64,000 nucleotides of DNA. Source: Chthoniobacterales bacterium (GTDB lineage: Bacteria; Verrucomicrobiota; Verrucomicrobiia; Chthoniobacterales; UBA10450). The translations under genes and the position numbers were made by a program. The number at the start of each line of letters is the position of its first letter. The stretch's first letter is position 1. The notes beneath the pieces are model-generated. The model saw only the letters and a program-made list of their open reading frames with translations, ran no database searches and had not been told where the DNA came from. This document shows positions 17,420 through 50,037 of this stretch, piece by piece. Location of the stretch: NCBI GenBank assembly GCA_039915555.1, contig JBDSNB010000044.1:3122-67121 (forward strand). The letters run 5' to 3'.

Positions 17420-17437
17420 CAAGGAACGCGCCACCGC

Positions 17438-33118: not shown

Positions 33119-33210
33119 TGGCGGAAGGGGTGGGATTCGAACCCACGGTAGGTTTAACCCTACGTTCGATTTCGAGTCGAGTGCCTTCAACCGGGCTCAG
33201 CCACCCTTCC
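33119..33210 (-). tRNA. tRNA-Ser (anticodon CGA), CCA encoded
   Basis: Reverse complement: GGAAGGGTGGCTGAGCCCGGTTGAAGGCACTCGACTCGAAATCGAACGTAGGGTTAAACCTACCGTGGGTTCGAATCCCACCCCTTCCGCCA. It has a 7-bp acceptor stem, anticodon loop CU-CGA-AA, a long variable arm and a GGTTCGAATCC T-arm. Confidence 0.9.
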
Positions 33211-33307: not shown

Positions 33308-34492
33308 TTATTGCTTCGTGGCGTCGGCGCCGGGCAGCTGCTGGCCGGTGCGCGATTTTACGATCGCGACATCACTGGCGTTGGTCGCGCCGGAGGCGTT
33401 GACGTCGGTGCGGAAATTCGCGCTGCTCAACGCCTGGCTGGTCGAGAGTTTGGTCTGTGCAATGTCGGTCGAACTCACACCGCCGCTGCCGTTCACGTCG
33501 CCGATCAACACACTCATCGGAATGGTAAACGAACGCGTGGTCGTCCCATCGCTCACGTTGTTTAACGTCACGGCGATGGTCTGCGCGTTGGTCACGTTGG
33601 TGAGCGGGATCGTAATCGTGTTGCTACTAATCGAGACCGCCCCGCCGTTGCTCACTCCGCCGGTGCCGATGTTGGCACTGCCCGCGGTGACCTGGGCCTG
33701 CGGACTGCCATTGACGCTGATGGTTCCGCCGGCGGGGTGCGTGACGACCATCTCATAATCATTGCTCGCGCTGTTCGTTCGCGGCTCGATTCCAGCGGTG
33801 CCGGTGAGCGGCAGGGGAATATCGAAGACTCCCACACCGCCGTGCGTTTTCCGGGAAACGGCCGTGACCGAGCTCGCCCGGATGTTGTCGATCCCCAATT
33901 GTCCAACCACCGGGTCGCCGTTCAGGTTGATGGTGCCAGCTTCGTTAATGATGCGGATCTCTTGGAAGCCGTTCTGGAAAAATACGTTGTAGGCCGCGGG
34001 ACCGCCAATCGGGACCAGGTTCGCTGCCGTGATGGGAATCGAGAAATGCTGCCAGCCGCTCCCCGGGGCGAGAATCACCCTTGGGGAAAGATAACCGGGC
34101 GATGCCTGCGAAATTTCCGCCTTGAACGCGATGCGAACCGAGAGCGTGGTGGTGCCTTGATTGATGAGATCGAGCTCGATCGAGGTCACGCCGGTGGAAA
34201 TGTAATTGCCGGTCCACTGGCTGATGATCGGCGGCTTATTGAACGGGTTGTTATAATTCTGCGCCACCAAACGGCCGCCCGAACCGCTGCCGTCCGCCAT
34301 CACCTGAATATAGGCGTCGCCCATCCCGGCCGGCCCCCCTGTGCTGATCAATTCCACGGCAGAAGCGCCGTTCAGCCAGTTCATCCGGGTCCCGTTCTGG
34401 AAATCATCGATCTGCCCGAGCACGATCGCCTCGGCCGGACGGGCAAAAAACAGAACCGGGAGTGCGAGCAGGCAGAAAAATTTCGTCAACAT
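33308..34492 (-). CDS. secreted protein with a C-terminal dockerin-like repeat pair
   Basis: Signal peptide MLTKFFCLLALPVLFFARPAEA (ATG at 34492, GGAGG upstream). Central motif SRKTHGGVGVFDIPLPLTG. The C-terminus GDVNGSGGVSSTDI...DVNASGATNASDVAIVKS resembles dockerin type I Ca-binding loops. Confidence 0.7.
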   Translation of the reverse strand: MLTKFFCLLALPVLFFARPAEAIVLGQIDDFQNGTRMNWLNGASAVELISTGGPAGMGDAYIQVMADGSGSGGRLVAQNYNNPFNKPPIISQWTGNYISTGVTSIELDLINQGTTTLSVRIAFKAEISQASPGYLSPRVILAPGSGWQHFSIPITAANLVPIGGPAAYNVFFQNGFQEIRIINEAGTINLNGDPVVGQLGIDNIRASSVTAVSRKTHGGVGVFDIPLPLTGTAGIEPRTNSASNDYEMVVTHPAGGTISVNGSPQAQVTAGSANIGTGGVSNGGAVSISSNTITIPLTNVTNAQTIAVTLNNVSDGTTTRSFTIPMSVLIGDVNGSGGVSSTDIAQTKLSTSQALSSANFRTDVNASGATNASDVAIVKSRTGQQLPGADATKQ

Positions 34493-34587
34493 GTTGCCTC
34501 CGACCCTATCGAAACCGCGCGCCGAATCAATAAACGGCGGGGAAAGCGTGGCCTCAGTTTGCTTGTGCATCCGTGCGATCATGCCGG

Positions 34588-35385
34588 CTATTCGTCGTCG
34601 TCGCCCTTCACGGGCTTGGCCGGTCCGCTCTCAGCTCCGGAAAAGAGATCGACGCGGATCAAGGGATCGCTCGGCTCTGCGAACGGACCCTCGAAACGCA
34701 GAAACTCGGCGGGCGGTTTGGTCAGCCAGATCTGCGTGTCGGGCACGGTGATGAATAGCTTGGCGATCGCCGGAATCTTCGGATGCACGAGGAAACGATC
34801 GCCGGTCAGAACTCGATCCGACATCTTCATCCGGTCGGTCCCGGCGTGTGAAATTTCCACGGTGACGGTTTTCGGTTTAGGTGTGAATCCGACGGCTTCG
34901 AGCTCGATCTGTTCGCCCTTGACCAGACGGGACCGAAGGTTCTGCACCGCGAGCACGAATCCGTAGCCCCCAAACGTCCGGCCGGGTTGGATCTCGATTT
35001 TCTCGGTCCACGTTTTCATCTCGCCGTCTTCCCGCTTTTTCGCGGTGGCCGTTTGCGCTTTGAAATCAATCGAAAACTCGCGCTGTAGATCGCCGCCTTT
35101 CGTTTCTTTCCACGACCATTCTTCTTGGATCAGTTCATCCTTTTGCCGGAAGACAGCTTTCTCTTCGGTGCGGCCTCCTTTAAATTTGTATTTCAGCGTG
35201 ACGGACAGGCGCCCGTCTTCCAGTTCCTGGGTGAATTCGCCGTCGGCCAGTTTTTTTCCATTCAGATCCAGCATGGCCGGGAAGCCGTGCGCTGGTCCTT
35301 CCAAAGCGGTGACCTCGACCGCGGACGCGGACCACGGGACGAGCAGCGCGAGGGCAAAGAAAAGATGGAGCGTTCTTAGTTTCAT
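34588..35385 (-). CDS. hypothetical secreted beta-rich protein
   Basis: Signal peptide MKLRTLHLFFALALLVPWSASA (ATG at 35385). I recognise no motif. It is on the same strand as the desaturase-family gene and 61 nt downstream of it. Confidence 0.55.
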   Translation of the reverse strand: MKLRTLHLFFALALLVPWSASAVEVTALEGPAHGFPAMLDLNGKKLADGEFTQELEDGRLSVTLKYKFKGGRTEEKAVFRQKDELIQEEWSWKETKGGDLQREFSIDFKAQTATAKKREDGEMKTWTEKIEIQPGRTFGGYGFVLAVQNLRSRLVKGEQIELEAVGFTPKPKTVTVEISHAGTDRMKMSDRVLTGDRFLVHPKIPAIAKLFITVPDTQIWLTKPPAEFLRFEGPFAEPSDPLIRVDLFSGAESGPAKPVKGDDDE

Positions 35386-35445: not shown

Positions 35446-36435
35446 TTACGATCGAACTGCGTCCGCCGGATGCCAGTCAGCTGGCTCATCAGCCGTGTGC
35501 CATTGAGCTCCCACGCGGGGATCGGCGAGGTTGCGCACCAAGTCCACCAAAGCGTGTGAGTAGCTCGGGAACGGCGGACGCTCTCTGTCGGCTGCCGGTT
35601 CGAGATCGATCGCGTATTGCGGCAGCTCGGCATGCGTCAGCCCCGCTCGTTTGTGATGCACCCCGTGATACGGCTCGTGCAGCAGCGAAAAAGAAACCAG
35701 CCGACCCACCCAGCCTTCCGCGACGATGCTACGAGTAGAACTATTAACCGTGTTCCCCGCCAAGCCGACGTGCTCGATGTATTTGCGCCAGCTTTGCAGA
35801 TTCGCCGCGATGATCGCCGGCACGAGATACATCCAGAGAAAATAGCGCCCGAGCTGGAAGTAAAAGACCGCGGCCAGAACCAAGCTCCACACGATCACGG
35901 TCGCGATAATTTCCGCCCAAATCCGTCGGCGCACTTTTTTCTGACGAATCGGCGAACCGCTGCGCAGAAAAGCGCGTTGGAACAAAAACGGGGTGAAGAG
36001 CAAACCGGCCGTGAGCTCGAGAAACGCGGCCAGCACCCGACCCCAGCGCGGCGTTCCTACGCGCACAAACGGCCACAGTTCCTCATCGCGCTCGGTGCCG
36101 AGATTGGCGTGATGCGTTTGATGGGCTGCGCGGTAGAGGCTGAAGCTCATGAAACTGAGGATGCCGAGGAAGACGCCGTTCACTTCATTGAAGCGTCGGT
36201 TGCGCTGCAGCATGCCATGCGACGCTTCGTGGAAACCCACGAGCGACCCGTGCATGAGATGACTGATGAGCAACACGAGCAGCACGACAGCCCAAATGGG
36301 CGCGCCTTGGTAAAGCGCATAAGCCAGTGCGATTTCGCTGAACAAGAAAAACGCGCTCACCACATGATACGCGGAGCGGCTGACCCAATGCGGCTCTTCC
36401 ATCGCGGTCGTTGAGGATGTCGTAGATTCGTTCAT
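35446..36435 (-). CDS. membrane fatty-acid desaturase/hydroxylase-family protein
   Basis: Histidine boxes HEASHG, HQTHHANLG and YHGVHHKR, with 4 or more TM segments. The ATG at 36435 overlaps the stop of the upstream condensation-domain gene (ATGA). Confidence 0.8.
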   Translation of the reverse strand: MNESTTSSTTAMEEPHWVSRSAYHVVSAFFLFSEIALAYALYQGAPIWAVVLLVLLISHLMHGSLVGFHEASHGMLQRNRRFNEVNGVFLGILSFMSFSLYRAAHQTHHANLGTERDEELWPFVRVGTPRWGRVLAAFLELTAGLLFTPFLFQRAFLRSGSPIRQKKVRRRIWAEIIATVIVWSLVLAAVFYFQLGRYFLWMYLVPAIIAANLQSWRKYIEHVGLAGNTVNSSTRSIVAEGWVGRLVSFSLLHEPYHGVHHKRAGLTHAELPQYAIDLEPAADRERPPFPSYSHALVDLVRNLADPRVGAQWHTADEPADWHPADAVRS

Positions 36436-37775
36436 AGCGCGGTCAGAAGAGCTTCGATGCGGCTTTCGGGAGACCGGCAAACGCTGGCCAGCACGGCCTG
36501 GTATATGTCGGCCAGCTTGCGGATCTCATCAATCGGAAACAGGTCGCGGCGGAAGAGCCAGGCCACTTCCAGGGCCTCGCCTTCCTCGTTAATTTCGCAC
36601 CCGAGATCGAAGCGCACCGTGCCGGTGGACCGAGTTTCAAAATGAAACGCCAACGTCGGCACCGCTGCATCCGGTGCCGGATGATTTTGCAGCGCAAAGC
36701 GAATTTCGAAAACTGGATTCCGCCCCGGCGCCTCCGACTCGCCCAGCGCTCGCGTCAGTTCGGCGAAAGGCATCGCATGCGCGAACGCGTCCAACGTCGC
36801 CTGATGCACCGCGCGCAACGTGTCGGAAAACTTCCGCTCCCGCTCGATCCGACCGCGTAACGGCACGATCCCCGCAAAATAACCCATCGTCTCGCGCACC
36901 GTTTGCTTGCTGCGATTCGCCACCGGCGTGCCGACCAGAATGTCCGCCGCGCCCATCCATTGCGAGAGCGCCATCTGAAACGCCGCCAGCAGTGCGCTGA
37001 AAAGTGTGACGCCGTTTTGCCGCGCCATCTCACGTAACGCGCGGCCGAGTTCCGGTGCGACGATCAACGCGAAACGTTCTCGCGACCCTGAATCATTGGC
37101 CGAATTCCAAAATCGTCGCGTGCCGGCTAATGATGTTTTCCAAAACTCGGCCCGCCGCGCGAGCTCCGCCGGTTGCCAGAAAGCGCGCTCCGCGGCGCCC
37201 CATTGCGAATAGGAAAGCGGCAGCGGACGAGGTGCCGCCCGGTCGCCCCTCAGCCCATCGATGTAGGCGGCCACCAACTCCTGAAAGAAAACGCCTAACG
37301 ACCAGCCATCGGCAATCGCGTGATGAATCGCGAAGACGAGCAGGTGGTCATCCGGGCCCATCCGAAACATCTCCACGCGAGAAAGCGGACCCTGCACCAA
37401 ATCGAACGGCTGGCGAAAAACTGCCTGCGTAAATTTTTCGATCGCTTCCGGTTCGCATTGCGCCGCTGAGAGTTCGCGGAAAGTGAACGCCGGCTTGCCC
37501 GTGCTCCGGATCATCTGCATCGGGCGATCCTTTCCCGGCAAAAACGAAAGCCGCAAAACCTCCTGCCGATCCACCACTCTTTGCAACGCGGCCTCACACC
37601 GTTCCGGGGTGAGCGCCCCCCGCGCTCGAATCGTGGCGCAGATATGGTTCGAGACATCGGTCACGAGCACCGGCGAGGTCTCCCACAATTCCCGCTGCGG
37701 AAAGGTCAACGGCTCGAGCCGGGCCTCGCCGCTCTGCAGCCATTGCTTGAAGCGGATGCGTTTGTCGCCGGACAT
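36432..37775 (-). CDS. stand-alone NRPS-type condensation (C) domain protein (PapA-like acyltransferase)
   Basis: 447 aa with the catalytic HHAIADGWS (HHxxxDG) motif. It starts 10 nt downstream of the PKS stop codon. Confidence 0.8.
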   Translation of the reverse strand: MSGDKRIRFKQWLQSGEARLEPLTFPQRELWETSPVLVTDVSNHICATIRARGALTPERCEAALQRVVDRQEVLRLSFLPGKDRPMQMIRSTGKPAFTFRELSAAQCEPEAIEKFTQAVFRQPFDLVQGPLSRVEMFRMGPDDHLLVFAIHHAIADGWSLGVFFQELVAAYIDGLRGDRAAPRPLPLSYSQWGAAERAFWQPAELARRAEFWKTSLAGTRRFWNSANDSGSRERFALIVAPELGRALREMARQNGVTLFSALLAAFQMALSQWMGAADILVGTPVANRSKQTVRETMGYFAGIVPLRGRIERERKFSDTLRAVHQATLDAFAHAMPFAELTRALGESEAPGRNPVFEIRFALQNHPAPDAAVPTLAFHFETRSTGTVRFDLGCEINEEGEALEVAWLFRRDLFPIDEIRKLADIYQAVLASVCRSPESRIEALLTAL

Positions 37776-37784
37776 AGCGCGTCG

Positions 37785-40700
37785 TTAGGCGCGCACTTCC
37801 GGCGCGGGGTCCTCGATCTCGCCCTCGAGCAAACGATCGATCTCCTCGTCGGAAAGCGCTTCCAAATCCACGCCTTCGGCGTGCTCCGTTTCCACCGCCT
37901 CGGACCTTGCGGTCGGCCCAGCCGCCGCGGGTGCATTAGCAGACGCGTGCCCACCGACGAACTCCGCGAGCAAGGTCGCGATCTGGCCGATCGTCCGCGC
38001 GCGCATCAAACTCGCGGGTGGTAAAGCCACTCCGACGGCCGCTTCAAGCGAGTTCTCAATCTCGACCGCCATGAGCGAATCAAGTCCGAGATCCGCCAGC
38101 GGCTGATCGTCGCGCAACGTTTCCGGCTTGACGCGCAAAACCGACCCGACCACTTCGCGCACGGCTTGTCCGATCACACCCTCGCGTTCCTCCAGCGAGG
38201 CGTTTTCAATCTTGCGGGCCCAATCGCCCTTCGCGCCACTCGCGTCCACGCCATCCACCGTGGCCGCGGCAATGTGTTCGAGCAACGGACTCTCTTGCGT
38301 GCCGCGAAAAGCCTGCCGCCATTTCGACCAATCCACTCGCAGCGCCATCGCCTGCGCGGCTCCCGCAGAAAGGAACGACTCCAGCAGGACGGTTAATTCG
38401 TTAGGCGTGAGCGGCGTCAAACCAAGGCGCGCCAAATATTCCGCCACCCGCTCATTGCGCGCCACGTAACCTTCGCCGCCGAGCGCGCCCCAGTTGATCG
38501 CGAGGCCCGGCAAACCGAGCGCCTGCCGATGATGCGCCAGCGCATCGAGAAAGGCGTTGGCTGCGGCGTAGTTGCCTTGCGCCGTACTGCCAAAGACGCT
38601 CGAGACAGACGAAAACATGACGAAGCAATCGAGCTCGAGCCCGAGCGTTCCCTCGTGCAGCAGCCACGCGCCCTGCGCTTTTGGTGCAAGCACGGTGCGC
38701 ATGCGTTCGCGCGTGAGCGAAGCGAGCGGCGCATCGTCGATCACCATCGCCAGATGGAACACGCCCTTGAGCGGATGTCCCGCAGACGAAATCTCCGCCA
38801 GCAATCGTTTCACATCGTCGGCCGATCCCGAATTGGCCTGCACTACTTGCACCTCTACGCCACGACCGCGCAGCTTCGTCAAAAATTCTTCCGCTTCCGG
38901 TGTGGTGGGACCGTTTCGACTCGTGAGCACCAAATGGCGCGCACCGCGATCGACCAGCCATTCGGCCAGCACTTTGCCGAAGCCGCCAAAGGCGCCCGTG
39001 ATCAAATAACTTCCATCCGGTTTCACCACGAAACCCGGCGCCAACGGCTCACCGCGCCGCGCCACGAAAGGTTCCGGAAACGCCACCACCACTTTGCCAG
39101 TGTGCTTGCCCTGCGCCATCCAACGGAAAGCCGCGTCGATCCGTGCCGCGGGGAAGGCGCGGAATTGCAGTGGCCGAAGCGCGTCCTCCGCGACGAGATC
39201 GGTGATCGTGCCCAAAAGCTGGCGCGCCTGTTCTTCGTCGCCAGTAAAGATCGCGTCCATCGCGACGACGTGGAACGACGCGTTCCTGCGCATCGGCCAG
39301 AGCGGAATGCGCGAGTTCTGATAAATGTCGCGTTTCCCGATTTCAACAAAGCGGCCGAAGGGCGCGAGACAGGAAAGTCCCATCGGAATCGCTTCCGCGG
39401 CCAGCGCGTTCAAAACCACGTCCACGCCTTTCCCGCTGGTAATTTCCATGACCGATTCCACAAAGTCTCCGCGCCTCGAATCGATCACATGTTTCACGCC
39501 CAGCACTTCCAGCAGGGCGCGCTTCGCCGGACTGCCCGCGCTCGCGATCACTTCCGCGCCGAGATGATGTGCGATCTGAATCGCCGCCATCCCCACTCCC
39601 CCCGCGCCCGCGTGAACGAGGACGCGCTCGCCCGCTTGCAAGTGGGCCACGGTCTTCAGCGCATGCCACGAAGTCATGAAGACCACCGGCAGGGTGGCCG
39701 CTTCTTCAAACGACAAACCGGTTGGAATCCGACGCACGTCGCCACCACGCGCCATCGCGTGAGTCGCGAGACCGAAAACTGCGAGACCAAAAACGCGATC
39801 GCCCACCGCCACCTGCGTCACGCCATGGCCGACCGCTTTCACCACCCCGGCCACTTCGTCGCCGTAGATGCGCGCGTCAGCCGTTTCTGCCGGGTAAAGC
39901 GCGAGCGCTTTGAGCACGTCGCGGAAATTCATCCCCGCGGCTTTCACTTCGATCGTCACCTGACCCGGTCCACATTCGGGCAGAGCAAACGGCACCAAAC
40001 GCAACGAACTGAGCAGCCCGCGCTCGAGAGATTCGATCCGCAACGGCACCGAGGGATCGAGCACTTCTTCCCGGCGCGGCAACCCGCGACCGATCCGGCG
40101 GACGTAGCGCGCTTCCCCGCGAAACGCGATCTCGGATTCGGAGTCCTTCTGCAAAAGCTCTTCCCAAAGTAAAACGTCGTCCGTCTTCGAAACGGAAGTC
40201 GGAAGATCGATGCCGCGGCAGGTGAGATTCGGATACTCGTTAGCCATCACCCGAAGCATGCCGACGACAGGCGCCTGCTGCACCGCGACGGCGTGCTCGC
40301 GCCCGACCGGTTGCGCGCCGCGCGTCACCAGATCGAGCCGCAGTTTCGCCGTGGCGCCGAGCGCCTGCGTGAGATGCAGGAGCGCATCGACGCTAAACGA
40401 GCCGACGCCCTGCTCGCGCTCATCCAGGCTCCAAAGAAAAACGAGACGCTGGGGAGAATCTTGCGCACATGCTGCCAACAACTGAGTCCAATCCTGCGGC
40501 TCTTCGGCGCGCAGCACGTAGGCGTCTTCTCCTTCGGAGGCGAATGCGCCACCTCGGTGCGCCACTCGGCAACGCGCGCCGGTGGCGCGAATTTGCTGCG
40601 CCAGTCGGTCGCCGGTTCCAGCTTCATCCGCCAATACGAGCCACGAATTTTCCGTGAGCGGCTCAGCCGTCGCGCTGGGCGCGAACGCTTCCGGTTCAAT

Positions 40701-43700
40701 CCACGACTTGCGCGCCATCAGACCAACGAGGCTTTCGTCACCCAACCCCGACAGGGATGCCGTTTCCGCGAAACCCGAATCGCGCAGTGTCTTCGTCCAC
40801 GCATCACGCGAGAGCCGTTGCGCCGTGCTTGTTAGACCAAAAACCGCATTCCACCAGAGATGCGGCTTCGCCATCTCGACCAGGAAGAGACTTCCACCGG
40901 GCGTCAGCAGGTCCTGCAGATTGCGCAGCGCGAAACGCGGATCGGAGGCAAGGTGGAGAACGTCGGCGCCAATGATGAGATCGAAATTCCCCGCCGCGAA
41001 ATCCTGCTCCGCCCCGGGCTGATCGAGATTGAAGGTTTTATATTCCACCTCGGGATACCCCGCCAGGTTCTGCCGCGCGCCAGCAAACGACGCGTCGGTC
41101 GCGTCGCTCAAAATGTAAGAGTGCAGTCCGCGCTCGAGCAGCGGCAGCACTTGCGAGGCGAGGCCACCGGTGCCGGCGACGATCTCCAGGATGCGCAGTC
41201 CGCGCCCCTCGGGAAGATGACTGGCCGCTTCTTTCACCGCCGCACCGACGGCCGCGTGCCAGGGACTAGACCTGAGGCCGTCACCGAAAAATTGCTCGAG
41301 TTGTTCCGGGCCGTCGCCGTTGCTCAAGACCTGCGCCGCGTTCTTCTCGCCCCGCAGCACGGCGCCGAGTTGCGCTGCGCTGGCTGCGACCAGAAGAGCA
41401 TCGGGGAGATGGCCGGGATATTTGGAAATCGCATTGCGAAACACCTCGGCGGCGCCGTCCGCAGTCGCGGTGAAAGCGGAGGTCGGTCGATAGCCGACAC
41501 CTTCTGCCACCAGCAAATCGTTTTGCACGAGACCGTCCATCAACTGCGCAAACGCCGGATGCATCGCGGCGGTGACGCTGAGTGCTTCGGCGGTGAACGT
41601 TTCGTTAGGCCGCGCACCCATTTCGCATAAAACGCGGGCGATTTGCGCTGCCGCCAACTGATCACCGGAGGCACTCGCCGATCGTAACGCTTCGCGCCCG
41701 CGCATTTCGAAAACCTCATCGAGCGCCTGCTGCGCTACGTTTCGCAAACGATCCAACGGCAGCGGCGCCAGCCGTGCGCGCGTGGTTGGAGCGGCAGTCC
41801 GGTCCCATCCGACGTGGTAAACCAGGTCGCGGCCTTTCCCGGTTTTGCCCGAGCGCCGCGCGCCCTCCACGCTGATGACGCGGAAGCCATCGATCCGCAC
41901 GCAGGGCTGGCCGGCGGCGTCGAATAAATCCAGCCCACCCTCAATAAATTCGTCATTGGCTTGGGTGACGCCCGCCCGCACCAAACCCGCCGCGCCGGGC
42001 GAACGCAGGAAGAGGATTCGCGAAAAACGCACCGGCAATCGCAGTCCCGCGTTCTGGCCTTCGAGCGTGGCCGCACCAGCGGAGAAAATTTGGAGCGCGC
42101 CATCAAACAGCGCCGGATGCAGCGAGTACTCGCCGGCCCGTCGCGCGGCCGCTTCAGTTAACGACAGGCGGCCGGCTGATTTTCCAGCGCCCGCCGACAA
42201 CTCGCGGATCGGCCGGAATTCTTCGCCGTAGGGCAATCCGAGATCGCTCATCCGGCCGTAAAAGGTGTCGACTTCCAGCGGCTCCAAACCAGCGGTCGCC
42301 TCCCAATTGGAAGTGGCAAAGGCGGATTCCACGCGCTCCCCGCGCATCGAGCCGACGACATGGACCGACCAGGAGCCGCCGTTCTCAAAGCGACTCTGGA
42401 TTGCGAACGTCCGCTCGTTAGGCTCGAAGGTCAGTTCGAGAAGCAATCCGGAAGCGGGGTCCGGCAGGATGAGCGGTTTGCGGATTTCGAAATCCTCGAC
42501 CGCGAAAGGTTTGCCTTCGAACCATTGTGCGCCCGCTTCGAGCACCATCTCGACGAAACCAGCGGCCGGGAAGACGATAAGATTTTCGACGCGGTGATCC
42601 TTCAGGAACGCCATCTGCCGGCCATCGAGACGCGCGGTCCATGTGGGAGTGGCGCGCGATAACCGGACATCGAGCAACCCACGACCACCGGGAGCGAGCC
42701 GGCCTTCGCGGAGGTCGTGGCCCTCATTCCAGCAACGGCTTTTGTCCCACGGATAGGCCGGCAGATTAAGCAGCCGTCGCGAAGGCGTGGCGGCCTTAAA
42801 GTCGAGCGCCACGCCGGCGAGGTGCAAATCGAGCGCTGTTTCGAGGAAGGCTTCGTGTTCGCGCTCGCGCCGGGTCGACGCCACGACCGTTCCTTTGCTG
42901 CCTTGCTCGGCCAGACATTCCTGAATTGAACGGACCAACGCCGGATGGGATCCGATTTCCAACCACACATCCACGCCGAACTCAGTGACGGCATTGACCG
43001 CGGAAACAAACTCCACCGTGTCGCGGACGCCACTCGCCCAATGCGCGCCCTTGCAGCCTTCGCCCGAGAAGCGCCCGCCGCTGACCGAACTGAAAAACGG
43101 AACTGTTTCCGCACGCGGCTCGAGGTCGGCCAACGCTTCTTCGATCGCGTCCGCTGCCGGCTGCATCATCTCGTGGTGGAAGGGGCTCGCCACCTGCAGG
43201 AACCGGCAAAAAATATCGCGCGAGTCGAGTTCAGCAGCGATGCGTTCGAGCGAGGTCTTTAAGCCCGCGAGCGTCAGCGAACGAGGTCCGTTAAACGCTG
43301 CGATGCTCACTCTGCTGTCGTGCCGGGCGATCACCGCATTCGCTTCGTCCGCGCCCATGCCCACGGCCAGCATGCTGCCGCCAGTCGGCGCGCGATCTTC
43401 CATGAAAATGGACCGCAGCACGATGACCCGCGCCGCTTCCTCCAGGCTAAGAACACCAGCCGCACACGCGGCCGCAACCTCGCCGGTGCTGTGACCCATA
43501 ATCGCGACCGGCTGCACTCCCCACGATTTCCAAAGTTCGGCCAGCGCGACCTGCATCGCGAAAATGGCGGGCTGCACGATCTCCGTGCGATGCATCTGTG
43601 AGTCTTCCTGCGTTCGCGCGAGTTCCTCCAAAAGCGAAAAACGCGCCCAAGGTTTCATCGCCTTGTCGCACGCTTCCATGACCTCGCTGAAGACCGGCTC

Positions 43701-45383
43701 GTGCTGCATCAGTTCACGGCCCATGCCCCACCATTGCGGTCCCTGTCCGCTCATGATGAAGGCAACGCGGACCGCCTTTTCGAGGCGTGGAGTGAAAGCG
43801 GTGCGCAGCTTCGGTCTGGCTTGTCCTTGCGAGAAGGCGTCGAGCTCGCGCGACAATTCTGAGACTGATCGGACGGTCGCGGTCAAGCGATGCGAGTGAT
43901 GATTGCGCCGTCCGCCTAACGAGTAAGTGAGGTCGGGCAATTGCGGCGGAATCGAGTTGCCATTTAACTTGGCCTGCTCGTCCAGCCACGCGCCCAACTG
44001 CCGCGCCGAAACTCGGAGCGATTCTTCGGAACGAGCCGAAAGCACGATCGGCCACGCGCGATCCGTCGTCGGCACGACTGAGGCCGCCAGCGGCCGCGCG
44101 GGCGCTTCCGCCAGGATGACGTGCGCATTGGCTCCGCCGAAACCGAACGAATTGATCCCCGCCATCCGAATGCCATCCGTCTTCGGAAAGGGCTCGCTCA
44201 CCAACGGGACCCGGAGCTTTAGCTTCGCGAAATCGATGTTCGGATTCGGTGTTTCGAAATGGAGATTCGGGGGAATGGTACCGTGCTTCAGAACCAGCGC
44301 GGCTTTGATCAAACCGGCCACGCCGGCGGCAGTTTCGAGGTGGCCCAGATTGGTTTTGGCGGAACCGATGACGAGCGCCGTCTCCGCCGTGCGTCCGGTG
44401 CACAGTGCTTCCGCCAAGGCATGCGCTTCGATTGGATCGCCCACCGCCGTGCCCGTGCCATGCGCTTCGACGTATCCGATTTGCGCGGGATCGATTCCGG
44501 CGTTCGCACACGCCTCGCGCACCAGCCGCGCCTGCGCTTCGGTGCTGGGGAGCGAAATGCCGTTCGTGTGGCCATCCTGATTCACTGCGGAGGCCGCGAT
44601 CACCGCGTAAATCGGATCGCCGTCCGCGACGGCGTCGGAGAGCGGCTTCATCAAAATCATGCCCGCGCCTTCGCTGCGCACGAAGCCGTTGGCCGATGCA
44701 TCGAACGCTTTGCATTTGCCATCAGGCGACAGCATCCCGGCTTGCGAAAAACCGATGAAACCATCGGGCGAAATTAACACCGTCACGCCACCCGCCACCG
44801 CCGCCCGGCAACGTCCGCTGTTAATGTGTTCGCAGGCCAAATGCACTGCGGTGAGCGCGGACGAACACGCGGTATCGAGCGCGAGACTGGGCCCGCGCAG
44901 ATTTAGGCAATAGGAAATGCGATTGGCCGCAATGCTGTGCGCAGTGCCCGTGGAGGTATGCGCGCCGATGCCGGCTCGGTCTTGAATTGTTTGGTAGTCG
45001 CTGTGCGAAAGCCCGACAAAGACGCCGATGTCGGTTCCCTTTTCCAAATCCAAAACGACACCCGCATCTTCGATCGCTTCCCACGTGGTCTCGAGCAGCA
45101 GTCGATGCAGCGGATCGACGAAAGGCGCTTCGCGGAGCGAGATTCCAAAAAACTGCGGATCAAACTGATCGATCCCGGAGACAAAGCCGCCGCGTTTCGC
45201 GATCGACTTCCCCGCCAGTCCAGGCTCCGCGTCGTAAAAACGATCGATGTTCCAACGATCGGACGGTATATCCGTGACCGCCTCGCGGCCTTCGACCAGC
45301 AGTTTCCAAAACGATTCCGGGTCGTTTATGCCGCCCGGGAAACGGCAGCCGATTCCGACGATGGCAATTTGTTTCTCGTTCAT
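37785..45383 (-). CDS. type I polyketide synthase, single fully reducing module KS-AT-DH-cMT-ER-KR-ACP, no thioesterase
   Basis: 2532 aa; residue numbers are from my own count.
- KS: DTACSS (Cys173), EAHGTGT (His308), NLGHLE (His348).
- AT: GHSTG (Ser632), with specificity region VASPFHH.
- DH: HRVENLIVFP (His930) and HPALFDGALQ (Asp1094).
- SAM methyltransferase motif: LEIVAGTGG (aa 1399-1407).
- ER: HAGAGGVG (aa 1924-1931).
- KR: GAFGGFG (aa 2130-2136) and NYAAAN (Tyr2272).
- ACP: LGLDSL (Ser2436).
- An acidic C-terminal tail of about 60 aa follows. Confidence 0.95.
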   Translation of the reverse strand: MNEKQIAIVGIGCRFPGGINDPESFWKLLVEGREAVTDIPSDRWNIDRFYDAEPGLAGKSIAKRGGFVSGIDQFDPQFFGISLREAPFVDPLHRLLLETTWEAIEDAGVVLDLEKGTDIGVFVGLSHSDYQTIQDRAGIGAHTSTGTAHSIAANRISYCLNLRGPSLALDTACSSALTAVHLACEHINSGRCRAAVAGGVTVLISPDGFIGFSQAGMLSPDGKCKAFDASANGFVRSEGAGMILMKPLSDAVADGDPIYAVIAASAVNQDGHTNGISLPSTEAQARLVREACANAGIDPAQIGYVEAHGTGTAVGDPIEAHALAEALCTGRTAETALVIGSAKTNLGHLETAAGVAGLIKAALVLKHGTIPPNLHFETPNPNIDFAKLKLRVPLVSEPFPKTDGIRMAGINSFGFGGANAHVILAEAPARPLAASVVPTTDRAWPIVLSARSEESLRVSARQLGAWLDEQAKLNGNSIPPQLPDLTYSLGGRRNHHSHRLTATVRSVSELSRELDAFSQGQARPKLRTAFTPRLEKAVRVAFIMSGQGPQWWGMGRELMQHEPVFSEVMEACDKAMKPWARFSLLEELARTQEDSQMHRTEIVQPAIFAMQVALAELWKSWGVQPVAIMGHSTGEVAAACAAGVLSLEEAARVIVLRSIFMEDRAPTGGSMLAVGMGADEANAVIARHDSRVSIAAFNGPRSLTLAGLKTSLERIAAELDSRDIFCRFLQVASPFHHEMMQPAADAIEEALADLEPRAETVPFFSSVSGGRFSGEGCKGAHWASGVRDTVEFVSAVNAVTEFGVDVWLEIGSHPALVRSIQECLAEQGSKGTVVASTRREREHEAFLETALDLHLAGVALDFKAATPSRRLLNLPAYPWDKSRCWNEGHDLREGRLAPGGRGLLDVRLSRATPTWTARLDGRQMAFLKDHRVENLIVFPAAGFVEMVLEAGAQWFEGKPFAVEDFEIRKPLILPDPASGLLLELTFEPNERTFAIQSRFENGGSWSVHVVGSMRGERVESAFATSNWEATAGLEPLEVDTFYGRMSDLGLPYGEEFRPIRELSAGAGKSAGRLSLTEAAARRAGEYSLHPALFDGALQIFSAGAATLEGQNAGLRLPVRFSRILFLRSPGAAGLVRAGVTQANDEFIEGGLDLFDAAGQPCVRIDGFRVISVEGARRSGKTGKGRDLVYHVGWDRTAAPTTRARLAPLPLDRLRNVAQQALDEVFEMRGREALRSASASGDQLAAAQIARVLCEMGARPNETFTAEALSVTAAMHPAFAQLMDGLVQNDLLVAEGVGYRPTSAFTATADGAAEVFRNAISKYPGHLPDALLVAASAAQLGAVLRGEKNAAQVLSNGDGPEQLEQFFGDGLRSSPWHAAVGAAVKEAASHLPEGRGLRILEIVAGTGGLASQVLPLLERGLHSYILSDATDASFAGARQNLAGYPEVEYKTFNLDQPGAEQDFAAGNFDLIIGADVLHLASDPRFALRNLQDLLTPGGSLFLVEMAKPHLWWNAVFGLTSTAQRLSRDAWTKTLRDSGFAETASLSGLGDESLVGLMARKSWIEPEAFAPSATAEPLTENSWLVLADEAGTGDRLAQQIRATGARCRVAHRGGAFASEGEDAYVLRAEEPQDWTQLLAACAQDSPQRLVFLWSLDEREQGVGSFSVDALLHLTQALGATAKLRLDLVTRGAQPVGREHAVAVQQAPVVGMLRVMANEYPNLTCRGIDLPTSVSKTDDVLLWEELLQKDSESEIAFRGEARYVRRIGRGLPRREEVLDPSVPLRIESLERGLLSSLRLVPFALPECGPGQVTIEVKAAGMNFRDVLKALALYPAETADARIYGDEVAGVVKAVGHGVTQVAVGDRVFGLAVFGLATHAMARGGDVRRIPTGLSFEEAATLPVVFMTSWHALKTVAHLQAGERVLVHAGAGGVGMAAIQIAHHLGAEVIASAGSPAKRALLEVLGVKHVIDSRRGDFVESVMEITSGKGVDVVLNALAAEAIPMGLSCLAPFGRFVEIGKRDIYQNSRIPLWPMRRNASFHVVAMDAIFTGDEEQARQLLGTITDLVAEDALRPLQFRAFPAARIDAAFRWMAQGKHTGKVVVAFPEPFVARRGEPLAPGFVVKPDGSYLITGAFGGFGKVLAEWLVDRGARHLVLTSRNGPTTPEAEEFLTKLRGRGVEVQVVQANSGSADDVKRLLAEISSAGHPLKGVFHLAMVIDDAPLASLTRERMRTVLAPKAQGAWLLHEGTLGLELDCFVMFSSVSSVFGSTAQGNYAAANAFLDALAHHRQALGLPGLAINWGALGGEGYVARNERVAEYLARLGLTPLTPNELTVLLESFLSAGAAQAMALRVDWSKWRQAFRGTQESPLLEHIAAATVDGVDASGAKGDWARKIENASLEEREGVIGQAVREVVGSVLRVKPETLRDDQPLADLGLDSLMAVEIENSLEAAVGVALPPASLMRARTIGQIATLLAEFVGGHASANAPAAAGPTARSEAVETEHAEGVDLEALSDEEIDRLLEGEIEDPAPEVRA

Positions 45384-45739: not shown

Positions 45740-47737
45740 ATGTGCGGGATTGCGGGTGTGATGGATTTGGCTGGGCGCCGAGCGGTGCCCGACGATGTCA
45801 TCCAACGCATGGCGGGCGCGATCGTTCATCGCGGGCCGGATGAGGACGGCTTCCTGGTTCGGCCGGGTCTGGCACTCGCTTCGCGGCGGCTCAGCATCGT
45901 CGGGTTGGCCGATGGGCGGCAACCGATCGGCAACGAAGACCAGAGCGTGCAGGTGGTGTTCAATGGCGAGTTGTTCGATTACGTCGAGCGGCGCGCGGAA
46001 TTGCAGGCGCGCGGGCATCGCTTTGTCACGCATTGCGACACGGAGATCATTCCGCATCTGTGGGAGGAGAACCGGGAAGCGATGTTCGAGAAACTGCGCG
46101 GGCAGTTCGCGATCGCGCTTTGGGACGCGCCGCGCGAACAACTGACGCTGGTCCGTGATCGGTTTGGCATTTCGCCGCTTTATTGGACGCGGCAGGGCGA
46201 TTGGCTCCTCTTCGCTTCCGAGATCAAGGCCTTGCTCGCTTCCGGCATGGTGGAAGCGAAAGCGGACCGGCGCGGGATCGATCACATCTTCACTTTCACC
46301 GCCATGCCTGGGCCGATCACCTGCTTCGAGGGCGTGCAACTTTTGCGGCCTGGTCATTTTTTGCAGATCACTCCGGGGCGTGAAAATGGCACCGCGCCCA
46401 TGCTCGACGAGCGCGCTTATTGGGAAATGGATTTCCCGGACGCAGGCGACGAAGAGGACTCGCGCGATCCGCGGCGGTTGGTGGACGAATTCGAGCAGAT
46501 CTTGCTGAAGGCGGTGGAGAAACGGCTGCGCGCCGACGTGCCGGTGGGCGCTTATCTCTCCGGCGGGCTGGATTCGAGCATGATCGTGGCGATGGCCTGC
46601 AAGCTCAAGGGCCCGGCGATTAACACCTATACCATCCGGGTGGACGATCCTTCTCTCGACGAACTCGACGCCGCCACTCTCTCGGCCCGCCATATCGGCG
46701 CGAAACCGCCGATCGTGCAGGAATTCCGCGCCAGCGATACGCTGGAGACGTATCCGGAATTGATCCAGGCCGCCGAGTCGCCGGTGATCGACACTTCGTG
46801 CGCGGCGTTGCTGAAGTTGGCGCGACGCGTTCACGGCTGCGGACAAAAGGTGGTCCTCACCGGCGAAGGTGCGGACGAATGGCTGGCCGGTTATCCGTGG
46901 TACAAGGCCGCGAAGCTTCTTGGTTACCTCGACGTGATCCCGGGATTGCGCTTGAGCGATCTGGCGCTGCGGGCCTTTCTAAAGGTCAGCGGTATTCCGC
47001 AATATCCGTCCGGGTTTCGGCACAAGGTGGAGGCGTCTGTGGGCGGCCCGAACGCCTGGGTCGAAGCCTATGGAATGCTCGGGCTTTCCAAACTCTTGTT
47101 CTACTCGCCCGCGATGCGGGAGGTGCTGGAGCAGAACCAGCCGTGGGCCACGCTCGGATTGAATCTGGAACGCGCGAAACGCTGGGCGCCTTTGAATCGC
47201 GGGCTCTGGTTCGGCGCGCGCGTCACGCTGGCCGGGATGTTGCTGCAAGCGAAAGGCGATCGCGTGGCGATGAACTCCTCCGTCGAAGTGCGTTACCCGT
47301 TCCTCGACGAGGATGTTTTTGCCTTCACCGCGCGGCTTCATCCGCGTTGGAAGCTGCGTGGATTTCACGATAAATATCTGCTGCGCCTCGTCGCGGAACG
47401 CTGGCTGCCGAAGAAAATTGCCCGACGCAGCAAAGTCATCTTCCGCGCGCCGCTCGATAGTTTTCACATGGACCCAGAGCCGGAGTTTGTCGGCCAGCTC
47501 TTGAGTGACGAATCGCTGCGCCGCACCGGTTACTTCGATGTCACGGCCGTGCACCACTGGCGAAAAGCTTTCCGTCTCATGCGCGCCGGTTCGCTCCCGC
47601 GGCTCTCGGTCGAAATGGGACTCGCCGCCGTCGTCGCCACCCAGCTCTGGCACCACACTTACATTGACGGTTCGTTAGCCGACTTGCCCACGCGGACCGG
47701 TCGCAGCGAACCCACGTTAGTCGCGCCGCGAGTTTAA
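45740..47737 (+). CDS. asparagine synthetase B-type glutamine amidotransferase (long, 665 aa)
   Basis: N-terminal nucleophile MCGIAG, the GATase-II motifs HRGPDE and VFNGELFDY, and the PP-loop YLSGGLDSS. Confidence 0.9.
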   Translation: MCGIAGVMDLAGRRAVPDDVIQRMAGAIVHRGPDEDGFLVRPGLALASRRLSIVGLADGRQPIGNEDQSVQVVFNGELFDYVERRAELQARGHRFVTHCDTEIIPHLWEENREAMFEKLRGQFAIALWDAPREQLTLVRDRFGISPLYWTRQGDWLLFASEIKALLASGMVEAKADRRGIDHIFTFTAMPGPITCFEGVQLLRPGHFLQITPGRENGTAPMLDERAYWEMDFPDAGDEEDSRDPRRLVDEFEQILLKAVEKRLRADVPVGAYLSGGLDSSMIVAMACKLKGPAINTYTIRVDDPSLDELDAATLSARHIGAKPPIVQEFRASDTLETYPELIQAAESPVIDTSCAALLKLARRVHGCGQKVVLTGEGADEWLAGYPWYKAAKLLGYLDVIPGLRLSDLALRAFLKVSGIPQYPSGFRHKVEASVGGPNAWVEAYGMLGLSKLLFYSPAMREVLEQNQPWATLGLNLERAKRWAPLNRGLWFGARVTLAGMLLQAKGDRVAMNSSVEVRYPFLDEDVFAFTARLHPRWKLRGFHDKYLLRLVAERWLPKKIARRSKVIFRAPLDSFHMDPEPEFVGQLLSDESLRRTGYFDVTAVHHWRKAFRLMRAGSLPRLSVEMGLAAVVATQLWHHTYIDGSLADLPTRTGRSEPTLVAPRV

Positions 47738-47792: not shown

Positions 47793-48563
47793 CTACGGAA
47801 GTTTGCTCAGCGTTTCGCGCCCGCGCGCTTTCACTTCCGCATCATCCTTGTCCGTTTGGCGCAAGGCCAGACCTTTGCTCAGGACCGTGCGAGCCTCAGC
47901 GTTGCGCCCCAGGCGCGCGTAAACCTCGCCGAGTTCGATTTGATTCAAGACTCGCTCAGGTTTTAAAGCCGCCGCCTGCTCGAAACATTTGGCCGCTTCC
48001 TCAAAGGTCGACACCGGCAGGCTCCCGTAGGTCATCTCAGCCATCTTGCGCTTCACGCCGGTCAGTTCCGCATAGCCCATGTGCCAGCGCCCGAGCACGT
48101 GCCACGCGAGATCGTTTCCCCGATCCAGTTTGATCGCTTTCTCGGCCTGCATTTTGATGATGCGCGCGGTCGCGATTTTTTCCTTCACGCTCGCGAGGGG
48201 CTGCAGTCTGCCGTAGCCGATGGCCAGTGCCAGTTGCGCGTCGGAATCGTTCGGCCCGGCCGCGGCGGCGCGCTTCGCGTAGTCGATCGCGATCCCGCCC
48301 AGTCGCAGCTTCTCCGTCTTCTTGCCGGCGTCGCTCATCAGATACCGGTATTGGCGCGAGATGCGGGTGAGGAGTGGCGCGTTCGCCGGTTCCAGTTTCT
48401 CCGCGGGGAGATAGAACTTCAGCGCCTCGGTGCCGTTGAACTTGAGATCAAAGGCATCGCCCTCAGCCGTTAGTTCGCTCGCGGATTGAGCTCGGGTGAC
48501 TCCGCCGATGAGCAAGAGGAACGCGGCGACCGGAATGGTCCGGCGGAAAAAAGATAAACGCAT
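47793..48563 (-). CDS. secreted TPR-like protein
   Basis: Signal peptide MRLSFFRRTIPVAAFLLLIGGVTRAQS (ATG at 48563), followed by helical repeat content. Confidence 0.65.
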   Translation of the reverse strand: MRLSFFRRTIPVAAFLLLIGGVTRAQSASELTAEGDAFDLKFNGTEALKFYLPAEKLEPANAPLLTRISRQYRYLMSDAGKKTEKLRLGGIAIDYAKRAAAAGPNDSDAQLALAIGYGRLQPLASVKEKIATARIIKMQAEKAIKLDRGNDLAWHVLGRWHMGYAELTGVKRKMAEMTYGSLPVSTFEEAAKCFEQAAALKPERVLNQIELGEVYARLGRNAEARTVLSKGLALRQTDKDDAEVKARGRETLSKLP

Positions 48564-48591: not shown

Positions 48592-49890
48592 TTACGGTCT
48601 GGAATCAATCAAACGCCCCGCGTTTAAAAGCTCTGCTTCGCTCAAACGCGGCCCGATCAGCTGCAAGCTCGTCACCGGAATATCGCGGCCCGGTTTCGCG
48701 TCCGGCAGCGGAATCGGAATCGCGAGCGCAGGATTGCCCGCGAAGTTCACCGCGATCGTGTTCTGCATGTCGAACACCAGCAACTCGAAGACGACCGAAC
48801 GCACGAACAATGGAATCCTCGGCGGCAATTGCTTCATCGTCGGCAAAGCGATGAAATCCACCTTCGCCAAAGCGCGGCGCAGGTCACGTTGCCAGGCAGA
48901 CTTGCGTCTCACCGCCTCTTGGTAATTTTGCGGATAATTGACTGACCCGAAGTTCACGACCGCTTTGGTCGAGCCCGCGACGTCGGGTTTATCCAGAAAT
49001 TCCTTGTCGTGCACCCAGGCGTCCGCAAACGCGATCGTCGTGCCGTCCTTCTCCGCCTGCAGCCACTTCGCTTTGAAATCGTCATCCAGTCTCACCACCT
49101 TGAAATTTTTCGCCGCCAGCGCGTCATCCAGCGCTTTCTCGATCACGGGATCCGTCCCGTCGAGATACAGCCGCCCGAGCGTGATCTGCCGCGCCGAAGG
49201 CTTCGCCGCCACCGCGCGCTGATAGCGGCCCGCAAATCCGCGCTGCAACAAATCCATCCCCTGCACGAGACGCGGCATGTCTTTCGCCATCGGCCCGATC
49301 GTGTCCAGGTGTTTGGGCGAAATCGGAAACACCCCCTTGGTGGAAATGAGCCCGAAAGTCGTCTTCAATCCCATGATGCCGGTGCAAGCCGCCGGCACGC
49401 GGATCGACCCGCCCGAGTCCGTGCCGAACGCGACATCCGCCATCCCGCTCGCCACCGCCACGGCCGAGCCGCTCGACGAGCCGCCGGGAATAAATTTATG
49501 CCGGCCATCCAGTTTGTTCACCGGCGTCCCGAAATAGCGGTTCTTGCCCGAAACCGTCACCGCGAATTCCGTCAGGTTCGTCTTGCCCACAATCTGCACC
49601 CCGCGCTCCCGCGCGATCGCCATGCACGCCGCGTCCTGCGTCGCCGGCGTCCCCGATTCCGCCAGATACTTCGATCCCGCCGTCGTCACCACGCCCTTCA
49701 TGTCGATGAGATCCTTCACCGCCAGTCGCAATCCCTGGCTGCCTTCCGCCGGCGGCCAATACTCAATGAAAGCGTGATTGCCGTTACGAGTCGCCGGCCG
49801 CGGCTCCAGCGAGACGCAACCCGTGAGAAAACTGGTCAATAATAGCCCGGCCAGAATTCCGTGGGCGGCGACGCTAGGGCAAATTCTCAT
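48592..49890 (-). CDS. amidase-signature family amidase, probable lipoprotein
   Basis: The AS motif GGSSSGSAVAVASGMADVAFGTDSGGSIRVPAA and a lipobox LLTSFLTGC. The start is the ATG at 49890. The longer ORF-track N-terminus is simply the translated tRNA-Thr. Confidence 0.85.
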   Translation of the reverse strand: MRICPSVAAHGILAGLLLTSFLTGCVSLEPRPATRNGNHAFIEYWPPAEGSQGLRLAVKDLIDMKGVVTTAGSKYLAESGTPATQDAACMAIARERGVQIVGKTNLTEFAVTVSGKNRYFGTPVNKLDGRHKFIPGGSSSGSAVAVASGMADVAFGTDSGGSIRVPAACTGIMGLKTTFGLISTKGVFPISPKHLDTIGPMAKDMPRLVQGMDLLQRGFAGRYQRAVAAKPSARQITLGRLYLDGTDPVIEKALDDALAAKNFKVVRLDDDFKAKWLQAEKDGTTIAFADAWVHDKEFLDKPDVAGSTKAVVNFGSVNYPQNYQEAVRRKSAWQRDLRRALAKVDFIALPTMKQLPPRIPLFVRSVVFELLVFDMQNTIAVNFAGNPALAIPIPLPDAKPGRDIPVTSLQLIGPRLSEAELLNAGRLIDSRP

Positions 49891-49964
49891 CCGGCTCACT
49901 GCATCATGTCGCAGCCGAAGGTCAAACCGGATGTCTCCAGCGGTCGGAAACGATGAGAAAGGCA

Positions 49965-50037
49965 AGCCGGCTGACGGGTTCGAACCGACGACCTGCTGAT
50001 TACAAATCAGCTGCTCTACCAACTGAGCTAAGCCGGC
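49965..50037 (-). tRNA. tRNA-Thr (anticodon UGU)
   Basis: Reverse complement: GCCGGCTTAGCTCAGTTGGTAGAGCAGCTGATTTGTAATCAGCAGGTCGTCGGTTCGAACCCGTCAGCCGGCT. It folds as a cloverleaf with anticodon loop TT-TGT-AA. The T-stem has one U-U mismatch, and CCA is not encoded. Confidence 0.9.

Follow-up and report, generated by a model that had tools for sequence, protein, structure and literature searches.

Introduction

Free-standing condensation (C) domains of the non-ribosomal peptide synthetase (NRPS) type, such as VibH (vibriobactin) and Bamb_5915 (enacyloxin), form the chain-terminating amide or ester from a carrier-bound thioester; as regards transport, LolA-like proteins are found together with an exporter in aryl-polyene/flexirubin clusters, and HglE together with DevBCA in the heterocyst glycolipid system. 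In zeamine biosynthesis, the stand-alone C protein Zmn19 condenses a thioester, held on the acyl carrier protein (ACP) of a polyketide synthase (PKS), with a free primary amine (PMC5811116), and the export of phthiocerol dimycocerosate (PDIM), a lipid made by a Mas-type PKS, needs an ABC transporter as well as the lipoprotein LppX (PMC7261415). In addition, a survey of ketosynthase (KS) domains has described an uncharacterised clade of monomodular PKSs which includes Verrucomicrobia and has no MIBiG match (PMC10308959). The present work deals with an operon of three genes, coding for a single-module PKS, a free-standing C protein and a membrane diiron enzyme of the desaturase/hydroxylase family (DES), carried on the minus strand of a 64-kb stretch of DNA (the window: 64,000 nucleotides of contig JBDSNB010000044.1) from a Chthoniobacterales metagenome-assembled genome (MAG). 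The PKS of this operon may belong to the monomodular clade just mentioned.

The three genes form the core of a larger block, conserved over two verrucomicrobial orders, in which each component is of a known enzyme class and the logic of release and export has precedents, while the combination appears to be undescribed. In fact, no description of the block was found in full-text literature searches or in a 2026 aminolipid review, which agrees with the earlier sequence-only reading of this stretch, whose author knew of no characterised counterpart. The reading favoured here, with modest confidence, is that a reduced acyl chain is released by the C protein, oxidised by DES and exported as an envelope lipid. 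Udaeobacter, Chthoniobacter and other Verrucomicrobia count among the most abundant bacteria of the soil (PMC7343977, PMC12714770), but very little is known about the chemistry of their envelopes, and the block represents a concrete, testable handle on a putative membrane lipid and on its transport route.

Conservation of the operon and of the surrounding block

The comparison set consisted of the best 80 related loci (labelled L001 onward), with one genome per GTDB species and C protein identities of 52-76%, and gene presence and order were scored in it by tblastn. The PKS was present in 78 of these loci, the C protein in all 80 and DES in 76, invariably in the same order and on the same strand, and PKS and C were adjacent in 78. 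The exceptions to the PKS-C-DES arrangement correspond to contig ends, together with one real loss of DES (L033). Considering the Pfam domain E-values of the three core genes (1e-94 to 1e-15) and the recurrence of the gene order in related loci, the three-gene observation is far beyond chance. The sequence-only reading had proposed a lipid-type operon in which the C and DES genes would be kept with the PKS; a co-transcribed operon of this type is supported, and the synteny is strong across the 80 loci. The three-gene composition that it described holds for the core triad, but the block is larger: its order is amidase, tetratricopeptide-repeat (TPR) protein, divergent AsnB, PKS, C and DES, mostly followed by a Lol-like export trio. 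The coordinates of all these elements are collected in Table 1.

The names among the 80 loci, taken from the GTDB-species scan, are nearly all verrucomicrobial, a few being just "bacterium", and comprise Chthoniobacter, Udaeobacter, Terrimicrobiaceae, Verrucomicrobiaceae, environmental Akkermansiaceae, Prosthecobacter and Brevifollis. Furthermore, the C protein has more than 120 clusters (90% identity level) at an identity of at least 62%, the named ones from Chthoniobacterales, Verrucomicrobiales and Prosthecobacter, including the record of a Prosthecobacter isolate (63% identity). A look-up of the exact C sequence gave no match; the origin of the window was recognised from an NCBI entry, 100% identical to the C protein, which is annotated as coming from a Chthoniobacterales MAG. 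A contig of 4349 bp binned as Candidatus Limnocylindria, Chloroflexota (L069, DATLPS010000130.1), carries the PKS-C junction at 57-66% identity; its label probably reflects faulty binning and not the presence of the block in a second phylum. Recent horizontal transfer was also considered and found to have left no sign, the GC and GC3 of the operon (0.71-0.72) lying inside the range of the neighbouring genes.

Table 1. Positions in the 64-kb window of the core operon, of the PKS domains and of the adjoining genes
Feature	Position	Strand	Basis or remark
Secreted beta-barrel-like protein (H282), directly 3' of DES	34588..35385	-	No Pfam match
DES, membrane diiron desaturase/hydroxylase-family protein, 329 aa	35446..36435	-	PF00487, 113 bits (threshold 29.7)
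Free-standing NRPS-type C protein, 447 aa	36432..37775	-	PF00668, 246 bits (threshold 30.6)
PKS, single-module type I, 2532 aa, KS-AT-DH-cMT-ER-KR-ACP	37785..45383	-	Pfam domain order
Acidic C-terminal tail of PKS, motif VDLxALSxEEIDRLL	37788..37871	-	Motif also in L024, L062 and L080
ACP domain, aa 2406-2472, phosphopantetheine site LGLDSL	37968..38168	-	Pfam and alignment
KR domain, aa 2124-2301, GAFGGFG and catalytic Lys/Ser/Tyr/Asn	38481..39014	-	Pfam and alignment
ER domain, aa 1783-2100, NADPH motif HAGAGGVG	39084..40037	-	Motif 100% conserved
cMT domain, CurJ-type, aa ~1237-1545, decayed here	40749..41675	-	Structure-profile match and alignment
Site of in-frame 12-aa deletion in cMT	40815..40826	-	Rest of GWWRFTDRDLRPxHPLL gone
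DH domain, aa 903-1176, H930...P939 and D1094xxxQ	41856..42677	-	Pfam and alignment
AT domain, aa 542-859, GHSTGE and specificity motif SPFH	42807..43760	-	Pfam and alignment
KS domain, aa 4-425, Cys-His-His triad DTACSS/EAHGTGT/NLGH	44109..45374	-	Triad 100% conserved, 54 sequences
AsnB-type glutamine amidotransferase, 665 aa, N-terminus MCGIAG	45740..47737	+	TIGR01536, 401 bits (cut-off 267)
Secreted TPR protein, signal peptide	47793..48563	-	Travels with the block
Amidase-signature enzyme, lipobox FLTGC, GGSSSGS	48592..49890	-	Lipoprotein signal; outer edge of conserved block

The synthase

The domain composition read from the letters alone, i.e. KS, acyltransferase (AT), dehydratase (DH), C-methyltransferase (cMT), enoylreductase (ER), ketoreductase (KR) and ACP, agrees with the order obtained by Pfam (KS at aa 4-377, AT 542-859, DH 903-1176, MT 1392-1508, ER 1805-2100, KR 2124-2301 and ACP 2406-2472), and the scan of the full 2532 aa found neither a loading module nor a thioesterase. 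The protein begins with the KS from its first residues (MNEKQIAIVGIGCRFPGG) and ends, as had also been noted, in an acidic tail (...VDLEALSDEEIDRLLEGEIEDPAPEVRA). No further module or loader is present in the 80 loci, which fits either iteration or the single extension of a fatty-acyl primer.

Motif integrity was assessed on an alignment of 54 full-length sequences, composed of the window and of 53 orthologues to which its PKS is 61-82% identical. The KS triad, the AT GHSxGE motif, the DH His/Asp motifs, the ER HAGAGGVG motif, the KR GxGxxG motif with its Lys/Ser/Tyr/Asn residues and the ACP DSL site are all conserved at about 100%, and the earlier statement that the catalytic motifs are intact stands for these six domains, but not for the cMT of this genome. 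According to the HAFH/YASH rule, ATs specific for malonyl-CoA typically carry a Phe in their specificity motif. In the family this motif is xPFH, with the malonyl-type Phe conserved at 96%, which by that rule indicates that the AT would use malonyl-CoA.

The top match of the PKS among solved structures was the M. tuberculosis mycocerosic acid synthase (MAS, 9d2y), at 1080 bits, and the Pks2 model (NF041183) was its second-best NCBIfam match. Together with the single module without thioesterase, and with an export logic which parallels that of PDIM, these matches would speak for a true Mas/Pks2 and PapA homologue, producing multimethyl-branched acids to be handed over by a PapA-type transfer. 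Nevertheless, the PKS reached only 1247.6 bits on the Pks2 model, where the cut-off is 2400, and is below the equivalog threshold; the presence of a cMT beside a malonyl-type AT means a different branching chemistry, in a genome where, moreover, that cMT has decayed; and no fatty acyl-AMP ligase (FAAL) partner is conserved in the block over the 80 loci.

Decay of the C-methyltransferase domain in this genome

In the family the cMT domain is intact, its nearest solved counterpart being that of CurJ (5thy, 106.9 bits), ahead of PksCT (72.5 bits) and LovB (55 bits), and by alignment the closest relatives L002, L004 and L005 keep it intact as well. In the window, however, the cMT core deviates at 16 of 60 near-invariant columns, compared with 18 of 775 elsewhere in the PKS (Fisher p = 5.6e-11). 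The first Gly of the S-adenosylmethionine (SAM) motif I (GxGxG) is replaced by Val (G1402V), the Asn of the NxxH motif by Asp (N1474D) and the GWW motif by TAQ (G1520T, W1521A, W1522Q), the last of these changes standing next to an in-frame deletion; as a result, the segment GWWRFTDRDLRPxHPLL, common to 53 out of 53 orthologues and found in CurJ as GWWKFTD...LRPDYPLL, has been lost. Other changes are F1425L, S1429T, F1432S, K1439N, A1478L, V1479A and F1501L. A frameshift artefact behind this lesion was checked for, and no alternative frame encodes the GWWRFTD motif.

Two features of the domain remain, namely the catalytic His (VLH motif, ~aa 1477), 100% conserved in the alignment, and the Glu of LVEM at the second position of the dyad, where relatives have Glu or Asp. 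Because of the changes in the SAM, NxxH and GWW motifs and of the 12-aa deletion, the cMT of the window is judged to be probably inactive or strongly impaired, and the chain made in this genome would therefore probably be unbranched. In contrast, neither the C protein nor DES of the window carries unique substitutions at near-invariant columns. Degeneracy of the MT or ER domains, which the sequence-only reading had reckoned as damaging to its own proposal, is thus found in the cMT of this genome, but not in that of the family, and the ER motif is intact.

Proposed release of the chain by the condensation protein

The PKS and C genes are separated by 9 nt (TAA cgacgcgct ATG), one fewer than had been counted before. 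The free-standing C protein with its HHAIADGW motif and basic N-terminus was correctly recognised at that time: H151, H152, D156 and G157 of the active site are invariant in 18 sequences, and the basic N-terminus is conserved, with invariant residues of its own. The PapA-like character then attributed to the protein could not be upheld. The profile of the C family matches, among the structures of the PDB, Txo2 (199 bits), TycC (197), PvdL (145), the PsoA C domain (139), the LovB CON domain (61) and VibH (28.6); PapA5 does not appear among these PDB matches, and its NCBIfam model (NF006787) gave 23.1 bits against a cut-off of 396. On profile scores, the protein is assigned to the canonical NRPS-type C domains, LCL-like and outside the PapA family. 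A true Mas/PapA homologue thus appears very improbable. The analogy with Mas holds for the working logic but not for family membership, since the equivalog, PapA and AT/MT tests all failed.

The link between the two proteins is illustrated by L062 (Candidatus Udaeobacter sp. SMAG_U5487, 2357-11338), where PKS and C form one in-frame open reading frame (ORF) of 2994 aa with the order KS-AT-DH-cMT-ER-KR-ACP-C, the tail motif running directly into the C domain. This may be a true fusion, or else a stop codon lost in the MAG. Taken as a Rosetta-stone fusion, it supports a direct hand-over from ACP to C; likewise, the C protein probably docks on the acidic PKS tail, whose conservation, together with that of the basic N-terminus, fits a docking pair.

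As for the acceptor, the closest relatives of the protein are in-line LCL-type domains (Txo2, TycC, the fuscachelin PCP-C, PvdL), and in a representative-library search, where the NRPSs with several C domains top the summed score, it was about 30% identical to ordinary C domains of giant NRPSs. It might, then, act in trans on an aminoacyl group bound to the peptidyl carrier protein (PCP) of an adenylation (A)-PCP protein encoded elsewhere, yielding a lipopeptide or an N-acyl amino acid. This is rather improbable, given that the 80 loci show no conserved A or carrier-domain gene over a distance of 10 kb, that no A or PCP gene occurs among the scanned ORFs of the 64-kb window, and that a later release would still need a thioesterase or a reductase, neither of which is present. 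Among the gene families outside the block, in fact, none was shared by more than 11 loci out of the 80. In the lack of a conserved A or carrier gene, release onto a nucleophile which is not carrier-bound would be the most economical reading. Ornithine was considered as that acceptor and set aside, since the arginine-biosynthesis neighbours vary between loci.

The membrane diiron enzyme

The DES gene starts at ATG 36435, and not at the upstream TTG of the program-called ORF; its start overlaps the stop of the C gene in an ATGA, amounting to translational coupling. Both this overlap and the three His boxes had been seen in the sequence-only reading and are confirmed. The boxes are HEASH, HQTHH and HGVHH, their eight His residues and H222 being 100% conserved in 73 sequences, and the protein has four hydrophobic segments. 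DES matches no curated NCBIfam equivalog (GntB 42 bits with a cut-off of 380, DesA 30.6 with 500, CrtR 21 with 475), and in a PDB search its sequence matched no solved structure. A second PF00487 gene is present in the window at 8671-9648 (+; 325 aa, 62 bits), unlinked to the operon.

Putative export and head-group genes

On the 3' side of DES, and on the same strand, a LolD-like ABC ATPase (234 bits on the LolD model, 195 on DevA) is found in 64 of the 80 loci, a permease of the MacB_PCD plus FtsX type in 62 and a secreted LolA_like protein (PF17131) in 56. The loci without this trio mostly end at contig edges; it is truly missing in eight loci which have enough downstream sequence (L001, L002, L003, L005, L007, L050, L062 and L075), the first five of which belong to the window's own clade, and none of the loci of that clade (L001-L005 and L007) was found to have it. 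The combination of a Lol-like transporter with a LolA-like carrier would imply an outer-membrane or surface lipid. In a Verrucomicrobiales subgroup of four loci (L010, L012, L023 and L045, at ~12255-13900 in each), the gene of a secreted alpha/beta-hydrolase of 530 aa (lipase/esterase-like) separates DES from the ATPase. In L033, an Akkermansiaceae MAG which has no DES (11353-16229), the LolD-like ATPase directly follows C, and the amidase and TPR genes stand after the LolA-like gene on the same strand, in a single long operon.

Upstream, AsnB is divergently oriented to the PKS in 47 of the 80 loci. The order amidase-TPR-AsnB-PKS is constant in three additional genomes (L085-L087), with different genes beyond the amidase (LysR, argCJBDF or NHL/RHS), and the TPR gene is the immediate upstream neighbour of the PKS in L039 and L044. 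The amidase start is ATG 49890, the program-called ORF (48592-50022) crossing a tRNA gene at 49965-50037 (-). The amidase lies 3' of the LolA-like gene in L033, L049, L058, L066, L068, L074 and L076; in L033 and L049 the TPR gene is its neighbour there as well, and in L049 AsnB has been relocated together with both. A linkage which survives such rearrangement argues for a functional association of the amidase and TPR genes at the least, while AsnB may take part in the pathway or may be a housekeeping gene which owes its place to synteny. Both the amidase and the TPR protein carry export signals, and the amidase is, from its lipobox, probably periplasmic.

The amidase-signature family includes fatty-acid amide hydrolases. 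A lipobox amidase and a secreted TPR protein in the conserved block, next to a MacB-type exporter, could also belong to the pathway of a specialised metabolite destined for export, such as a signal, an antibiotic or a surfactant, made as an acylated precursor and processed or activated, prodrug-like, by the periplasmic amidase, with AsnB supplying or amidating the head group; zeamine biosynthesis offers a parallel, in that release by a stand-alone C is paired there with later hydrolytic trimming. This explanation is considered unlikely, although less so than the two alternatives discussed above. Clusters for such metabolites are usually patchy and fast-evolving, whereas the block keeps identities of 61-82% for the PKS and 52-76% for the C protein over two orders, small-genome Udaeobacter included, a degree of conservation more in keeping with a housekeeping role in the envelope than with a secondary metabolite of patchy occurrence. 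Moreover, the LolA-like carrier suggests a membrane-to-membrane transfer of lipid and not secretion.

Proposed route and its weighing

According to the envelope-lipid reading, the PKS, working on its own ACP, would assemble malonyl units into a saturated chain, either by iteration or by extending a fatty-acyl primer. In the family, the CurJ-type cMT would add SAM-derived alpha-methyl branches, a step which would probably be missing in this genome, leaving the chain unbranched. The C protein would dock on the acidic tail of the PKS and release the chain, as an amide or, less likely, an ester, onto a nucleophile not bound to a carrier, and DES would desaturate or hydroxylate either the chain or the finished lipid. 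In most relatives, a Lol-like ABC transporter would then pull the product from the inner membrane and pass it on to the periplasmic LolA-like protein, and the periplasmic amidase and the TPR protein, perhaps with AsnB, would act on the head group.

A number of points weigh against this reading. The analysis is wholly in silico and nearly all of the related loci are MAG contigs. The figure of 541 relatives obtained from the GTDB scan is inflated by its generic motif (HHxxxDGW), includes generic C domains and does not represent the family size, the safe count being that of the 80 retained loci only. Neither the 64-kb window, over its whole length, nor its closest relatives carry the Lol-like trio, which leaves export in this organism unsupported. 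In-line NRPS domains, to which the C protein is most similar, normally take PCP-bound acceptors. Finally, AsnB passes the model of the housekeeping asparagine synthase, and its adjacency may be inherited synteny only.

A wider proposal can be made only tentatively: the block could provide a hitherto unrecognised core envelope lipid shared by soil and freshwater Chthoniobacterales and Verrucomicrobiales, PKS-made and normally methyl-branched, amide-linked by C, oxidised by DES, with Lol-like delivery of its own and head-group remodelling by AsnB and the amidase, lineages such as the present one, with a decayed cMT and without a linked exporter, being natural variants of the pathway.

Other genes and signals in the window

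Directly downstream of DES stands the gene of the secreted protein H282, which was examined as a possible replacement for the LolA-like carrier. Its AlphaFold2 model, built with a multiple sequence alignment, is a half-open beta-barrel (pLDDT 88, compared with 37 for the single-sequence model). The best PDB match by Foldseek was DUF1849 from Brucella (TM ~0.5), the LolA, LprG and EPDR folds reaching a TM of 0.27-0.35, and BLASTP against the LolA-like protein gave E = 1.4; the replacement was rejected on these weak matches. Of the 346 homologues of H282, the few that bear a name come from Chthoniobacterales and Udaeobacter, and the gene stands beside the operon only in the window's clade. As its distant homologues occur in unrelated neighbourhoods, it was also rejected as a conserved component, and is probably not part of the system. 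Further on, a secreted protein of 424 aa with a C-terminal dockerin-type domain (33308-34582, -) has no counterpart in the related loci, and a tRNA gene (33122-33210, -) lies just beyond it.

An arginine-biosynthesis operon is located at 57501-63976 (-), with genes for an argB-like kinase, an M20 deacylase, an argH-like lyase, argG, an unknown gene and argC. These genes are 8-14 kb from the block in the window, and in L086 argCJBDF abuts its amidase end; as the neighbours vary, the proximity is probably coincidental. On the other side, a run of catabolic genes at 13260-21273 (+) codes for a DHO-dehydrogenase-like protein, an aldehyde dehydrogenase, an amidohydrolase, a cytosine/purine/allantoin-type permease, a class-III aminotransferase and a DDAH-like hydrolase, and looks like a cluster for the degradation of pyrimidines or guanidino compounds. 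An Rfam scan of the window returned two tRNAs only, with no riboswitch in the 356-bp region between PKS and AsnB, and a scan for promoters and terminators gave signals at background level.

Significance and comparison with known systems

That a 7.6-kb synthase has been kept at 61-82% identity over two orders, Udaeobacter included, implies that its product is important. In addition, the loci constitute a natural series of variants, comprising the decay of the cMT in this genome, the fusion of PKS and C in L062, the loss of DES in L033 and the loss of the exporter in some clades.

With the aryl-polyene and HglE/DevBCA systems, the block shares the pairing of a PKS lipid with a LolA-like carrier or with a MacB/DevA-type exporter, as reflected by the score of the ATPase on the DevA model. 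The type of synthase differs, being type II-like in the aryl polyenes and multi-protein in the heterocyst glycolipid; release by a C domain and a diiron oxygenase are found here in addition, and the exporter is missing from the window's own lineage.

The coupling of a free-standing C protein to the last carrier domain of a synthase resembles that of Zmn19, to judge from the short spacer between the genes and from the L062 fusion. Unlike the partners of Zmn19, VibH and Bamb_5915, the donor would be here a monomodular reducing PKS and not a multimodular line, and the similarity to VibH is low (28.6 bits). Furthermore, the present C protein is conserved across a bacterial class and is not limited to a single antibiotic cluster.

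The mycobacterial PDIM and sulfolipid pathways (Mas/Pks2, PapA5/PapA1) have in common with the block a single-module, fully reducing PKS without thioesterase, a separate HHxxxDG acyltransferase which off-loads the chain, and a dedicated ABC transporter with a periplasmic lipid carrier (MmpL7, DrrABC and LppX in their case), their product being an outer-envelope lipid. The parallel with Mas/Pks2 that had been drawn from the sequence is retained at this level only. The C protein falls in the NRPS C clade and not in the PapA clade; Mas has a methylmalonyl-specific AT and no MT domain, while branching would rely here on the cMT and SAM together with a malonyl-type AT; there is no FAAL partner, and the exporter is of the MacB/FtsX type with a LolA_like protein. 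Moreover, the block has extra components in its diiron oxygenase, amidase, TPR protein and AsnB, and its host is a diderm verrucomicrobium.

Finally, the domain order is identical to that of fungal highly reducing PKSs of the LovB type (KS-AT-DH-cMT-ER-KR-ACP-CON) and of PKS-NRPSs of the PsoA type, and a literature search on the KS-AT-DH-cMT-ER-KR-ACP(-C) architecture returned fungal papers only. The likeness extends to the L062 fusion, which reproduces the ...ACP-C order exactly, and to the matches of the C profile with the C domain of PsoA and the CON domain of LovB. The ER of LovB is inactive, whereas that of the present family has an intact NADPH motif. The cMT, for its part, is nearer to the bacterial CurJ than to PksCT or LovB, and the C protein, unlike the CON domain of LovB, is full-length with an intact HHxxxDG motif. 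With its genes arranged in an operon and in a bacterial host, the block thus represents a bacterial example of the LovB-like logic.

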